Source of the DNA: an uncultured delta proteobacterium
GTDB lineage: Bacteria > Desulfobacterota > Binatia > UBA9968
Direction of reading: 5' to 3'
Assembly (NCBI GenBank): GCA_963804165.1
Contig: CAWDPO010000015.1
Location: 1-64,000 of the forward strand
DNA length: 64,000 nucleotides
Shown: positions 43,957 to 62,569 of the stretch, piece by piece
Layout of the letters: every line of letters starts with the position of its first letter
How positions within the stretch are numbered: the stretch's first letter is position 1
Notes under the pieces: generated by a model
Database searches by the model: none
What the model was told of the DNA's origin: nothing
Seen by the model: the letters and a program-made list of their open reading frames with translations, nothing else
Program-made: the position numbers and the translations under genes

Positions 43957-43976
43957 CCCTGAGTGAAGTCGAAGAG
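43957..43976 (+). repeat. REP-like CCCTGAG-N-GTCGAAG motif
   Basis: Similar to 46882..46902 and to the IS110 target site. Confidence 0.6.
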
Positions 43977-57971: not shown

Positions 57972-58907
57972 ATGGAATTCGGACTCCATTTGCCCGCGTC
58001 CACGGCAAGGGTCAAGGCGGAGGATCTCATCCGCTTCGCCCAGCGAGCCGAGACTCTGGGATTTTACTGCATCACCGTCGCGGACCACGTCATCGTTCCG
58101 CGCGACATCTCGGTACCGTATCCCTATACCACCGACGGTAAATATCCCGGCACGGGATACCACCTGGAAACACTAATGACCATGGGGTTTCTCGCCGGCG
58201 CGACGCAGCGCATTCGCTTTATCACCAGTGTCATGATCCTGCCGTACCGCAATCCCGTTGTTACGGCGAAGATGCTCGCGAGCCTCGACGTATTGTCTGG
58301 CGGGCGCGTGATCGTCGGCGCGGGCGTCGGCTGGATGAAGGAAGAATTCGAGACGCTGCGCACCGAGCCGTTCGCGGAGCGCGGCAAAGTTACTGACGAG
58401 TATATCGCCGCGTTTCGAGAGCTGTGGACCAGCGACAATCCGAGTTATAGCGGCAAATATTGCAACTTCTCCAACATCGTCTTTCTGCCCAAACCTGTGC
58501 AGAAAACGATCCCGATCTGGATCGGCGGTCACAGTAAACAAGCGATCCGCCGCGCCGCGCGCCTGGGCGACGGCTGGCATCCCATTGGCGGCGTGCCGAC
58601 GATTCCTCTGGAGCCAGAGGACGTCGCCGCAGATCTGTCGATGCTGAGAGACTACGCCGAAAAAGCCGGGCGCGATCCTAAAACAATCCGTGTCGCTTTG
58701 AAGGGCTCGCTCTTCGACCGTGAAAAACAAATTACGCCGGGAAAACGACGGCGCTTTATCGGCAGCGCCGAAGAGATCGCGTCGGACATCCGCGACTATC
58801 GCGCTGTAGGTGTCGACACGATGATCTTCGACGTGCGCAGGCCGAGTGTCGCGGAAACATTGGAGAGGATGGAGTGGATGGCCAAGGACGTGTTTCCAAA
58901 AGTGTAG
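57972..58907 (+). CDS. LLM class (putative F420-dependent) oxidoreductase
   Basis: ADHVIVP, SLDVLSGGR, GVGWMKEEF, PIWIGG, GDGWHP. Confidence 0.9.
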   Translation: MEFGLHLPASTARVKAEDLIRFAQRAETLGFYCITVADHVIVPRDISVPYPYTTDGKYPGTGYHLETLMTMGFLAGATQRIRFITSVMILPYRNPVVTAKMLASLDVLSGGRVIVGAGVGWMKEEFETLRTEPFAERGKVTDEYIAAFRELWTSDNPSYSGKYCNFSNIVFLPKPVQKTIPIWIGGHSKQAIRRAARLGDGWHPIGGVPTIPLEPEDVAADLSMLRDYAEKAGRDPKTIRVALKGSLFDREKQITPGKRRRFIGSAEEIASDIRDYRAVGVDTMIFDVRRPSVAETLERMEWMAKDVFPKV

Positions 58908-58987
58908 TGCGATTTTTCTAAAGGTCGCTGAATATCTCATGGTTTCCGATTTAAGTATCGGCCGTTGCCAAGAAGCTGCGGAATAAT

Positions 58988-59053
58988 GTCATCCTGAGGC
59001 AACGCCAAAGGATCTCGCCTTGGCGACTTACGCTTCGGACGAGATTCTTCACT
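58988..59053. repeat. REP-like pair (GTCATCCTGAG..AGGATCTC ... GAGATTCTT)
   Basis: Typical GTCAT-headed inverted pair; second arm degenerate. Confidence 0.55.
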
Positions 59054-59149
59054 ATGTCGCGCGACCGCCCTTCGGCTTGAGGCCAAGAGAACGTTCGTCA
59101 TGCCGACCCTTCGACGGGCTGCTGCTATGTGGATGTCAAGTCAATAACT

Positions 59150-59304
59150 CGCAAAGGCTCTTAAATTCTCCTATGACTTTTTCTCCCTACCCACCCAAGA
59201 GAGACTCGCTGCTATACGTGGCACGGCACTGGGCCGTCACACTGACTTGCGATGCGCCCTCTTTGGCACTAAGCCCCGGGATCTCTGTCTCAAGGGTCGA
59301 ACCT
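59150..59304 (-). ncRNA. Predicted bridge/seekRNA region
   Basis: Non-coding, downstream of the transposase; stems flank matches to the IS end junction. Confidence 0.6.
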
Positions 59305-60462
59305 TCAGGAGTCTTGTTCTCCTGGTACTGGCCGTCGTCGAGTCGTTCCCTGGGGCACAGTCTCCTCTTGGGTCAAAGGAGCCGATTGAACTTTTTCTCT
59401 CACTTCGTAAGGTCTTTGTTGCATCAACACCACCGCGGCCCGCACACACAGTTTATGGGCCACCGCCACAATGGCCACTCGAGGACCGAGATGACGCGGA
59501 TGTTTTTTCGCCACGGTGCGGAAGAACTCTCTCAACTCGCCGTCCTGGCGGATCGCCGACCAAGAGGCTTGAATGAGTTTGCTGCGCAGTCTTGGATCTC
59601 CGCTGTGAGTAATCGAGCCGCGAGTGGTTCTCTCTCCGGTGGAGCTCTCGGTGGGTACCAACCCCACAAAGGCCGGCAGCTCACGAATGTTATTGATCTG
59701 GCGCCAGTCCCCGATACGGGCCATCATCTGGCTGGCCACGATCCAGCCGATCCCAGGAAGCGTTTTCAGATACTCGATACACCGAGACAGTTCCGGGTCG
59801 TTGTGGCAAAAGCGGCGAATCTCACGGGTGACCTTAAGGACTTGCTTCTCCCCAAACTCCAGATTGTCCAGCAACTGATCGAGCTTAAAGCGCACCACCG
59901 AAGAGCAGGGAAGCTTTCTCAGCTTGGCTTTGACCAAAAACGACCACTGGCTGCCGGCCGGAGCCGGGGGAAACTCCAGCCCTTCCATCAGCAACAGCGA
60001 TTTGATGCGTTGCTTCATCGCCACCACCTCGCTGACCAGAGCGTCGCGCAGTTGAGTCAAGTGACGCAGCTCTCGATACAAGGTTGTGGGCACATGAATG
60101 CTCTTGAGCTGTCCGGCGCGCAGATTCTCTGCCAATCCCACGCTGTCGAGCCGATTGGTCTTCACTCGCTGTCCTGGCGCTTTGGGGATCATCGATGGAG
60201 AGGCGATCAAGCAAGGGTACCGTTGAGCGACCAACCCGTCATACAGTCCATAGCCCGTCGGTCCCGCCTCATAGGCAAAGGCTACTTTCTTATCGCCATA
60301 GTGCTTACGAACATGGTTTACAAGATACTCGACATTGTACGGCATGCGCATCGACTTCACAGATCCCTGATGATCGGTAAAGGTCACCGAAATGCTTTTC
60401 TTGTCCACATCGAGTCCGCCAAACACATCGTAATCGCGAGGGATGAAAGTTTCGATTCCCAT
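59305..60462 (-). CDS. IS110 family transposase/recombinase
   Basis: GLDVDK, YEAGPTG, KTNRLDS (DEND variant of DEDD), PGIG, GLVPTESSTG. Confidence 0.95.
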   Translation of the reverse strand: MGIETFIPRDYDVFGGLDVDKKSISVTFTDHQGSVKSMRMPYNVEYLVNHVRKHYGDKKVAFAYEAGPTGYGLYDGLVAQRYPCLIASPSMIPKAPGQRVKTNRLDSVGLAENLRAGQLKSIHVPTTLYRELRHLTQLRDALVSEVVAMKQRIKSLLLMEGLEFPPAPAGSQWSFLVKAKLRKLPCSSVVRFKLDQLLDNLEFGEKQVLKVTREIRRFCHNDPELSRCIEYLKTLPGIGWIVASQMMARIGDWRQINNIRELPAFVGLVPTESSTGERTTRGSITHSGDPRLRSKLIQASWSAIRQDGELREFFRTVAKKHPRHLGPRVAIVAVAHKLCVRAAVVLMQQRPYEVREKVQSAPLTQEETVPQGTTRRRPVPGEQDS

Positions 60463-60690
60463 CGTAGTGCCTCCCTGGTCCAACGGCCGATAAGTTTCGG
60501 CCACTGTACTATCACGGAGCACTCGCGGTACAGCTCGACATCCCTCATACAAGTCTCAGGGTTAATTCCAACCGGCATCCAGGTTCGTTTTCAGTTCGAG
60601 TTCGAAACCCACCCGGCTTCGACAAGGCCAAAAAGAAAAGACCCGTCAGGACTGCTCCGCGCGCTAATTTCCCTCAAGTCGCAAGAGAGC

Positions 60691-61542
60691 CTATAGCCCC
60701 GCCTTGGGCTGGGGAATATCCGCCGGCCAGTTCTCGATGTAAACCGGCTCCGGCGGAAAGCCGAGGACATTGAGATAGAGATACTCCCGCCATGCGGGAA
60801 ATCTCCGCACGTTTTCCACCGGCACGTTGAAATATTTCCGCAGAAACTCGCGGCGCGGCGGATCGAAGACCGTGCGCGGGCGGCTGTTGAGCGCTTGCCT
60901 TTCGATCTCGCCGATACGCCGGCGAATCGGCGCCTCGCCCCAGATCTCGATCTGCTCCCACACGTAGTCGTGGAGTTTCTGCAAAATGGCGTCGTGATGG
61001 CTCCGCTCTTCGGCATGCACCACGCGTTCTTCGAAATCGAGCAGCTTCGGTGTTGTTATCTGGATGCTCTGGATGCTCGCTGCGGTGACGTGGCCGTAGG
61101 GCCACAAGTTGCCGGAAAAAATGTAGCTCAAAAAATCGCGCTTCATGATCTGGTGGTGCTCGACGCGCGGTGTCAGACCGTATTGCCGCTCAAACTCAGG
61201 GTCGGGTTTGGAGTGATCGCGGCTTGGGTCGATGGCATTGGCTTGGCGGATGTACCCCCAGCCGTGGCCGGCCTCGGTGCCGGCATGTTCGGCGAGAAAA
61301 TAACGCCATTCGCAGTCCATTTCGAAGTGCGCCATGGCGTAACACGCCGTGCCGACCGTGACTTCGAGCTCGTCGCGGCCGCGGTGCGCCAGCCAGCGGG
61401 CCAAACGTTCGCGCTCCTCGTCGTCCTTAGGCGGCCGCTTGATATTGTCGCGACTTTTGCGCAGTGCCTCGATCTCCGCGCCGATCGGATTGTCCTCACT
61501 GTACGTGATTTTTTTCCCGACTCCCCTGATATCTTCTGCCAT
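60691..61542 (-). CDS. Ferritin-like (putative diiron) hypothetical protein
   Basis: DELE, EAGH and EERSHH (ExxH-type) motifs. Confidence 0.55.
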   Translation of the reverse strand: MAEDIRGVGKKITYSEDNPIGAEIEALRKSRDNIKRPPKDDEERERLARWLAHRGRDELEVTVGTACYAMAHFEMDCEWRYFLAEHAGTEAGHGWGYIRQANAIDPSRDHSKPDPEFERQYGLTPRVEHHQIMKRDFLSYIFSGNLWPYGHVTAASIQSIQITTPKLLDFEERVVHAEERSHHDAILQKLHDYVWEQIEIWGEAPIRRRIGEIERQALNSRPRTVFDPPRREFLRKYFNVPVENVRRFPAWREYLYLNVLGFPPEPVYIENWPADIPQPKAGL

Positions 61543-61564
61543 GACGACCTCCGAAAAATTATCC

Positions 61565-62569
61565 TTATTTCGTCGAATAGAGCGACCTGACAAATCCTTC
61601 CTTTTCAATGCGCTCGAGCAAACTCATATCCAACACGCCGAACGGGTTGCGACTGGACGGCGCAGTTGAAAGCTTGACTACCGTCTCGATCGCTTCCTTG
61701 GGAACCGTCGGTACACGCTCGTATGCCGCGACCGCACGCTGATAGACTTCTTCGAGAGTTTCCGGATCGGTGAGCCGCATGTTTCGGCTCAATGCTTTCT
61801 TTGCCATATCGGGATTGGTCAACGCAAGTTTGATCCCGTGAAGTATCCCTTTGAGAAATCGCTCCAACGGCGCCGATGATTTTTCCAACGCGGCTCTGGT
61901 GGTGACGACCGAAGTGAAGGGGCACGGGATCCGCGCCGTGGCCAGATCCAAGACCATGCGCATGCCGGTTTTTTTAGCTTCGATGGTATCGGCCGGTGAC
62001 AAAAGCGCGGCGTCGACAACACCCGTGAACAGGGACTGGGAGACGAGCCCCAAACGGCCGAACGCCACCAGTTTCACGTCCCTCAGTGGATCGAAGCCCG
62101 CTCGTGTGAGTAAAATCTGGTTGGCTAAATTGAGCGACGTCCCCGGTGGAGTGTTTGCAATCAGCTTTCCTTTGAGATCCTTGAGCTGAGAAATCTCCGG
62201 CTTCGCCCAAAGTTGAAAGGGCACGATGTTTACGAGCCCGCTGATGATCCGAACGTCCACGCCTTTCAGATAGGCGCTCAGCGCTTGGCCGCCGCCCACG
62301 ATGGCGACCTGCAAGCTGCCCGAATCGAGGGCACGTATCATGGTCGTGCCCGCCGATTGGGTCAATTCGACGTTCACACCGTAAAGGTCGAACAACTTCT
62401 GATCGACGGCCAAGTAGCCCGCCAACTGAGTTGAGCTCGCTCCAGAAAATCCCAGCCGGAGAGATTCCGCTGCCCAAACGATCACGCAGTTATGAGCGAG
62501 CGTGAACGCTGCGAGAGCAAGGACCACGGTTGACTTGGCGAAGAAACAGAAAATATTTTTCGACAGCAT
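61565..62569 (-). CDS. ABC substrate-binding protein, NMT1/SsuA-like
   Basis: Signal peptide, LKDLKGK, GVVDAALL. Confidence 0.85.
   Translation of the reverse strand: MLSKNIFCFFAKSTVVLALAAFTLAHNCVIVWAAESLRLGFSGASSTQLAGYLAVDQKLFDLYGVNVELTQSAGTTMIRALDSGSLQVAIVGGGQALSAYLKGVDVRIISGLVNIVPFQLWAKPEISQLKDLKGKLIANTPPGTSLNLANQILLTRAGFDPLRDVKLVAFGRLGLVSQSLFTGVVDAALLSPADTIEAKKTGMRMVLDLATARIPCPFTSVVTTRAALEKSSAPLERFLKGILHGIKLALTNPDMAKKALSRNMRLTDPETLEEVYQRAVAAYERVPTVPKEAIETVVKLSTAPSSRNPFGVLDMSLLERIEKEGFVRSLYSTK

Follow-up and report, generated by a model that had tools for sequence, protein, structure and literature searches.

An IS1111-group insertion sequence with a predicted guide RNA, seated in a REP-like hairpin of an uncultured delta proteobacterium

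Targeting of repetitive extragenic palindromic (REP) sequences by the IS110/IS1111 family of insertion sequences (ISs) was known before 2024. In that year the recombinases of these elements were described as RNA-guided (PMC11187229, PMC11208160); the comparisons made here draw on parts of those two papers and of PMC11208158 and PMC12288879. IS1111 members are there distinguished by subterminal inverted repeats that leave extensions of 7 or 6 nt on the left and 3 nt on the right (PMC11187229), by a longer non-coding end downstream of the transposase gene tnp (PMC11187229, PMC11208160) and by a seekRNA in which the guide that pairs with the top strand lies 5' of the guide that pairs with the bottom strand, the reverse of the order in IS621 (PMC11187229, PMC11208160). 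The DNA analysed here (the window) is a stretch of 64,000 nt from an uncultured delta proteobacterium of the Binatia (contig CAWDPO010000015.1 of assembly GCA_963804165.1), and it carries at 59124–60554 an element that is very probably an IS1111-group member of the IS110 family, seated in the loop of a REP-like hairpin and provided with its own guide RNA. The element is a well-preserved, ordinary example of the known RNA-guided IS110/IS1111 kind and a new, unnamed member of it; since RNA guidance (2024) and, before it, REP targeting were already on record, it adds no new principle. For annotation, it accounts for a 1.8-kb intergenic region and for four repeats in the genome.

The element, its copies and the REP-like target

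The following features define the element and its target, all read on the minus strand.

59124–60554, minus strand: insertion sequence of 1431 bp, delimited by four near-identical genomic copies with common ends
60555–60556, minus strand: left core dinucleotide AG (CT on the plus strand); the right-side copy is at 59122–59123, and AG stands at both ends in 4/4 copies and in nearly all homologous loci
60534–60548, minus strand: left subterminal inverted repeat ATGAGGGATGTCGAG, set 6 nt in from the left end; homologues keep ATGATGGATGTC
59127–59140, minus strand: right subterminal inverted repeat CTTGACATCCACAT, set 3 nt in from the right end and including the −35 hexamer TTGACA
59305–60462, minus strand: tnp, IS110-family RNA-guided transposase of 385 amino acids, with ATG at 60462 after GGGAGG and stop codon TGA at 59307–59305
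60555–60582, minus strand: left half of the REP-like target, ATGCCGGTTGGAATTAACCCTGAG, from the sequence as read and comparison of the genome's own copies
59097–59123, minus strand: right half of the REP-like target, (AG)CAGCCCGTCGAAGGGTCGGCAT, from the sequence as read and comparison with the own copies and REPs

The assembly (7.5 Mb, 46 contigs) contains four copies of the element, each of 1431 or 1432 bp and 99–100% identical, on contigs C15 (the window), C6 and, twice, C34; their differences to the window copy number 0, 3, 3 and 9 positions. In the tnp sense each copy begins with ACTTGTATGAGGG, ends with CACATAGC and has AG on either side. A further 102 homologous loci, gathered by relatedness to the transposase, bring the collection to 106. 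A scan of genome collections supplied 22 of these (51–93% protein identity), from assemblies labelled as Binatia, Syntrophobacteraceae, Pyrinomonadaceae, Nitrospira and ‘delta proteobacterium’, and the best 80 of 549 confirmed stretches in a metagenome scan (75–94% identity) were used. With a search pattern tolerating up to 2 substitutions, the left end motif is present in 94 and the right in 95 of the 106 loci, own copies included.

A first-pass annotation of the window had placed the boundaries at 59124 and 60554 and proposed that other genomic copies be mapped; the common ends of the four copies agree with it, with one caveat on the right. There the junction of the window copy, and of the own copy L002, reads ATAGC-AGC-AG-C..., one AGC beyond the junctions of L003, L004 and all homologues, so that a right boundary at 59121 with the core at 59119–59120 is equally possible for the window copy. 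The extra AGC may belong to a right end longer by 3 nt, or it may have arisen by slipped recombination in an AGCAGC repeat. This ambiguity of 3 nt in two of the four own copies apart, insertion has taken place without duplication beyond the shared core dinucleotide. The exact empty site of the window locus was not found in the relatives examined (G011, G016 and G020). A REP site that contains the AGC and is empty exists at C46:105682, where it reads CCCTGAGCAGCGCCGTCGAAGG.

The subterminal repeats are imperfect, with one indel (ATGAGGGATGTCGAG against ATGTGGATGTCAAG, the reverse complement of the right end), and the extensions outside them are ACTTGT (6 nt) and GCT (3 nt). The non-coding end measures 181 nt 3' of the tnp stop against 92 nt 5' of the start. 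These properties, together with the protein matches described next, uphold the IS1111-type identity proposed at first pass, and in subterminal repeats with short asymmetric extensions, a longer 3' non-coding end and a junction promoter the element resembles ISEc11, ISKpn4 and ISPa11 (PMC11187229).

The tnp product has an N-terminal RuvC-like DEDD domain and a C-terminal Transposase_20 domain. It matches PF01548 with 53.9 bits (cut-off 29), PF02371 with 74 bits (cut-off 21.3) and the NCBIfam model NF033542, ‘IS110 family RNA-guided transposase’, with 202.5 bits (cut-off 140). The C-terminal domain holds the motif GLVPTESSTG, whose T275-G276 align with the ESG of ISCro4 and which fits the GL-P----S(t)G form carried by IS1111 transposases (PMC11187229). 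Tetrad positions D18/D20, E65 and D106 are invariant in the family. A DEDD-type N-terminal domain joined to PF02371, and the GL-P----(S/T)G motif, are likewise found in ISEc11, ISKpn4 and ISPa11 (PMC11187229). Unlike the IS1111 family as stated in PMC11187229, for which 330–350 amino acids are given, the protein has 385, and the plasmid-borne relatives nearest to it are at most 36% identical. With IS621 the similarity is weak, with an E-value of 9e-7 over the C-terminal domain, and the core differs from that of IS621 in being AG in the tnp sense.

All four copies occupy REP-like sites of the shape C(C/T)CT(G/A)AG|IS|AG-C..GTCGAAGG, with the flanks listed here in the tnp sense.

Window copy: AACCCTGAG, IS, AGCAGCCCGTCGAAGGG
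Second copy: GGGCTCTGAG, IS, AGCAGCGTCGTCGAAGGA
Third copy: CGCCCTAAG, IS, AGCACCGTCGAAGGG
Fourth copy: GGGCTCTGAG, IS, AGCGTCGTCGAAGGA

The insertion point lies in the loop of a short hairpin, which at the window site is formed by ACCCT ... AGGGT. Uninterrupted sites of the pattern C[CT]CT[GA]AGC(0-9)GTCGAAGG number 27 in the genome, and most of them are framed ccgttcgCCCTGAGC....GTCGAAGGgctccg, with ccgttcg before and gctccg after. The proposal that the element had inserted at a CT core inside a REP is thus borne out, with AG/CT on both sides and REP-like sites in 4/4 copies. The two further REP motifs cited with it, at 43957 (CCCTGAGTGAAGTCGAAG) and 46882 (CCCTGACATGGAGTCGAAGGGG) on the plus strand, are real but degenerate, and a stricter pattern finds none in the window. 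A REP is also the target of ISPa11 (PMC11187229), and ISPpu9 and ISPpu10 of Pseudomonas, compared here by description only, are multi-copy IS110-family elements at a fixed REP point, unlike the present element in their hosts and REP families (PMC12288879).

The predicted guide RNA and its loops

The guide RNA and the elements recognized in it are predicted as follows.

59195–59394, minus strand: predicted bridge/seekRNA, from a conservation peak and folds; it overlaps the last ~88 nt of tnp
59330–59337, minus strand: predicted right-target guide CGACGGCC, within the tnp open reading frame (ORF); it lies in the target-binding loop, on the 5' side, just before AG(U/A)ACC
59287–59297, minus strand: predicted left-target guide ACCCUUGAG (59297–59289) followed by AC (59288–59287), on the 3' side of the target-binding loop
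59244–59251, minus strand: predicted left-IS-end guide (CG)CAAGUC, which pairs with the core G and ACTTG and lies in the donor-binding loop, on the 5' side
59223–59237, minus strand: predicted inner hairpin ACGGC/GCCGU of the donor-binding module (59237–59233 with 59227–59223), its stem invariant in 64–67 of 67 sequences
59207–59215, minus strand: predicted right-IS-end guide AUAGCAG (59215–59209) followed by CG (59208–59207), on the 3' side of the donor-binding loop

Among 78 full-length unique elements, majority agreement is 0.90–0.93 at 59394–59195, against ~0.84 in the body of tnp and 0.76 at 59194–59155, which makes this region the best conserved part of the element despite its variable guides. 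Synonymous positions are invariant in the last 88 nt of the tnp frame. RNAalifold run on 15 sequences predicts two stem/internal-loop modules. In module 1 an outer stem of GCCCCAGGG (59356–59348) with CCCGGGGC (59280–59273) leads to an internal loop, an inner stem GUACC/GGUUC and a cap formed by an AGGAG/CUCCU hairpin; module 2 consists of an outer stem, an internal loop and the hairpin GUG..ACGGC/GCCGU..CAC. A single-sequence fold of 59378–59183 has −76.7 kcal/mol with z −2.35. Folds of 67 sequences and of the single sequence instead pair GUCUCUCUUGGGU (59205–59193) with ACCCAAGAGGAGAC (59373–59360, in the reading frame), which would close both modules.

A guide RNA on the minus strand of the 3' region had been proposed at first pass, and the conservation peak and the two-module fold speak for it. 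Its individual motifs, CAAGTC (59249–59244), ATAGCAG (59215–59209), the ACGGC/GCCGT hairpin and CCCTTGAG (59296–59289), lie where they had been placed. The RNA start at 59330 has to be revised: the RNA extends into the tnp frame to ~59394, and the right-target guide at 59337–59330 had been missed.

The right-target 8-mer takes 25 forms in the homologues, where its sequence is the reverse complement of the flank to the right. Over 73 distinct insertion events it matches the flank at 8/8 positions in 24, at 7/8 in 32 and at 6 or fewer in 17, that is, at 7/8 or better in 56. Total pairing is 506/584 against a permutation mean of 363.5, a sum not attained in any of 5000 permutations; with 19 events, a preceding test had given P = 0.0014. 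On the opposite side of the loop, the left-target segment CCCUUGAG equals the window left flank ACCCTGAG if one U is bulged. With this bulge the four bases upstream score 194 over 77 events against a mean of 152.7, a score reached by 34 of 5000 permutations; in the lineage L036–L040, for example, the flank GCGCAGAG goes with the guide ..CCAGAG. The target-like CCCTTGAG of the first-pass annotation is accordingly this left-target guide; it lies in the first internal loop, on the 3' side, and tracks the flank with one U bulged. Aligned without the bulge (the variable 5 nt before UGAG), the guide does no better than chance, its score being reached by 1312 of 5000 permutations. Another candidate, GGUUCGAC as a match to the TTCGAC of the REP, was rejected by eye, as it does not track the flank (in L006 the flank is ATCGA and the RNA GGTTCGAC). 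In the own copy L004 (C34:140341–141772) the RNA region has a 1-nt insertion and two substitutions, one of which falls in the left-target guide, where ACCCAUGAG replaces ACCCUUGAG.

In the donor loop, whose pair of guides is invariant or almost so, CAAGUC pairs with the core G and left-end bases 1–5 in 42, 50, 53, 41, 40 and 50 of 53 events, and the ATAGC of the other guide equals the last five bases of the right end in 55–57 of 57 events. Covariation of the donor guides is slight (158 of 5000 permutations). Since the IS ends are nearly invariant, support for the donor loop rests on match and conservation, with little covariation. The covariation of guides with homologous ends and targets that had been suggested as a check is thus found for the target guides and is little seen for the donor guides. 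The three-base stretches 59251–59249, ahead of the left-end guide, and 59209–59207, which begins at the core G of the right-end guide, are complementary in some lineages (CGC/GCG, UGC/GCA, UGC/GCG) and not in others (CCC/GCC, UUU/GCA); they may form a short closing helix of the donor loop.

The bases that follow the core in both loops look like the handshake positions of IS621, in which one or two guide-adjacent bases match the partner DNA after strand exchange (PMC11208158). At the left-target guide they are AC, identical to the opening two bases of the left end. In loop 2 the handshake-like base is the C/G/U that comes after the core and follows the right-end guide; it agrees with base 1 of the right flank in 56/59 events (C/C 41, G/G 12, T/T 3). 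Unlike in IS621, where the extra matching bases adjoin the right guides (PMC11208158), they follow the left guides here. The two internal loops, for target and donor, each with left and right guides that include the core dinucleotide, are otherwise like those of IS621; the RNA is unlike it in lying at the 3' end, not upstream of tnp, and in the reversed guide order of each loop (PMC11208160). The top-strand match 5' of the bottom-strand match, with overlap at the insertion point, is the order of ISEc11, ISKpn4 and ISPa11 (PMC11187229).

The element also illustrates a guide that overlaps the end of a coding sequence. Because the right-target 8-mer is part of the tnp frame, the position of the stop codon changes with the guide: it lies inside the guide as TAG in L006, TAA in L007 and TGA in L011 and L015, and in the window the frame extends 8 codons past the guide. 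The RNA thus starts in the reading frame, with a right-target guide that precedes or contains the stop, an overlap that published IS1111 RNA folds may share (PMC11187229, PMC11208160). Among 56 good right-target matches, 45 pair the core G and seven flank bases and 11 pair flank bases 1–8. It is possible, though we think it doubtful, that retargeting rewrites the tnp stop and C-terminal tail and that the two registers, one base apart, mark together with an Asn variant of the transposase (see below) a distinct IS1111 subgroup with rules of its own; if so, two guide registers would mean that the cut position is not set by the right-target guide alone. About 100 close relatives in soil and sediment assemblies display 25 right-target guides, each of which fits its own REP variant, while the rest of the scaffold is constant. 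This series is a natural data set from which the programmable loop positions of an IS1111-type RNA, including the candidate handshake position, can be mapped.

Predicted junction promoter, proposed mechanism and alternatives

59134–59139 and 60544–60549, minus strand: −35 hexamer TTGACA and −10 hexamer TATGAG of a predicted circle-junction promoter, the form TTGACA-17-TATGA(T/G/A) recurring across homologues

When the two ends are joined through one AG, right end first, TTGACA (59139–59134) comes to lie 17 nt from TATGAG (60549–60544), as the first-pass annotation had reconstructed. The geometry is kept in 86 of the 87 loci that have both ends (72 TATGAT, 13 TATGAG, 1 TATGAA, 1 with none). Within the element no promoter-like site was found on the tnp strand, in keeping with the published account, in which a junction-driven transcript is processed to give the guide RNA (PMC11187229). 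The sole promoter-like site in 58900–60800 is TTTACA-17-GATATT (9/12) at 60743–60715 on the minus strand, ~160 nt upstream of the left end; it reads towards tnp and could allow read-through transcription of the integrated copy. In three RNA-library runs, seen as contigs, there are pieces 90–99% like tnp and the 3' region that come from relatives; DNA carry-over is possible for these pieces, which are no proof of transcription. One X17 contig carries adaptor sequence beside the start of the second module, a single unsupported hint.

By analogy with the family, the element would excise as a circle whose joined ends create a sigma-70-like promoter driving tnp, and the bridge/seekRNA would be the 3' part of the junction transcript, ~59394–59195 of the minus strand, folded into two stem/internal-loop modules. 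Loop 1 would read the target, its 5' side CGACGGCC pairing with the top strand right of the AG core and its 3' side ACCCUUGAG with the bottom strand left of, and including, the core. Loop 2 would read the joined IS ends, CAAGUC pairing with the left end and AUAGCAG matching the right end and the core, and the recombinase would exchange strands at AG. We infer from the described systems that the RNA is transcribed, that the protein binds it and that it guides recombination.

Several observations count against an intact, RNA-guided element, and they bear on fold, guides and enzyme alike. Compensatory base pairs are absent (0/49 in 15 sequences, 0/42 in 67 sequences), the stems being invariant, so that the structure rests on energy, conservation and analogy. 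GUCUCUCUU has two mutually exclusive partners among the predicted folds; the AAGAG/CTCTT closing stem proposed at first pass is predicted in one fold but is one of these two competing pairings. An Rfam scan of 58000–62000 at E ≤ 1 gave no match. The narrower span whose folding had been recommended (59130–59330, run as 59124–59330) yields z −0.67, which is uninformative because the first module is cut off. The right-target guide uses two registers (45 against 11 events), and left-end position 3 is C in 10 events while the guide A stays unchanged, without covariation. No circle junction or empty-site joint was seen in the assembled contigs of four public sequencing runs. The window guide has one or two mismatches to every site occupied by the own copies (6–7/8), and no perfect REP target of it exists in the genome; perfect genomic matches to it are confined to two non-REP sites, both in register 1, with register 2 giving none. 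At the third position of the catalytic tetrad the protein has Asn (N103 in KTNRLD, codons 60154–60139), not the Asp of KTDxxD; Asp is found in five other IS110-type proteins of the same genome (K(S/T/D)D..D) and in ISCro4 (KTDAVD), and the replacement of this acidic residue sets the element apart from ISEc11, ISKpn4 and ISPa11 (PMC11187229).

The last of these points are what would be expected if the window copy were a relic no longer self-mobile, its guide drifted from its targets. The guide ends in C and is one base off that of the closest lineage, L027–L031 (92–94% amino acid identity), which has G and matches its flank CGCCGTCG at 8/8. The four copies, however, differ by only 0–9 positions with the tnp frame open in all; one-mismatch guides are common in natural events elsewhere (the 7/8 class above); and Asn occupies the third tetrad position in 103/103 family loci and in 2/3 distant plasmid relatives (~35% identity), which marks it as a clade variant and no lesion. 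We therefore regard a relic as unlikely. The first-pass description of the element as intact and programmed for this REP family stands as far as the four open ORFs go; programming is presumed from a guide that falls short of a perfect REP target.

Could the matches arise without an RNA guide? The transposase might read the REP hairpin by shape or sequence, the loop matches being by-products of an ancestry that the elements share with host REP variants. The target is indeed a structured palindrome with nearly constant TCGAAGG and CCTGAG, the stems of the RNA show no compensatory changes, and related elements in related hosts are not independent samples. The evidence is nevertheless direct complementarity and not mere correlation: the four variable bases of the 8-mer are, in many different pairs, the reverse complement of the variable REP spacer (GGCTCTCG, GCCAGCCG, GTTTATCG, CAAAGTCG, CGGAGTCG, CTTTGTCG), and with 25 distinct 8-mers and a score that 0/5000 permutations reach, hairpin recognition is highly improbable. 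We give as little credence to a conserved 3' region that acts as subterminal single-stranded DNA pairing with target and ends, as in the target choice of IS200/IS605. Complementarity between guide and flank cannot by itself separate an RNA guide from a DNA guide, the contigs demonstrate no transcript, and no promoter-like site was found inside the element on the tnp strand. Against a DNA guide, the protein scores above the cut-off of the model for IS110-family RNA-guided transposases, and the PDB contains solved structures of related enzymes; for ISEc11, ISPa11 and IS621 the guide has been demonstrated to be RNA (PMC11187229, PMC11208160); and the two-module fold and guide order agree with the published RNAs. 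An RNA-guided IS1111-group element thus remains the preferred reading.

Repeat surroundings and related transposase genes

Around the IS lie ~360 nt of repeat material (58908–59123 and 60555–60698). The 64 nt directly to its right on the plus strand (60557–60620) are a multi-copy repeat that several genomes of the genus carry in many places. The flanking genes of two congeneric relatives, G011 and G016, are ~70–160 nt apart with neither REP nor IS between them, which argues that this genome has gained both the IS and the 360 nt of repeats around it; in G020 a different filler separates the flanking genes.

Two homologous loci, L023 and L026, have 12 and 7 stop codons in tnp, yet keep the ends and the RNA region; they could be moved in trans or be no more than decaying copies. 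Besides tnp, five or more kinds of IS110-family transposase genes occur in the genome (20 places), and several of these kinds are present as multiple identical copies, such as at 5 places with 51.3 bits and at 2 places with 70.1 bits.

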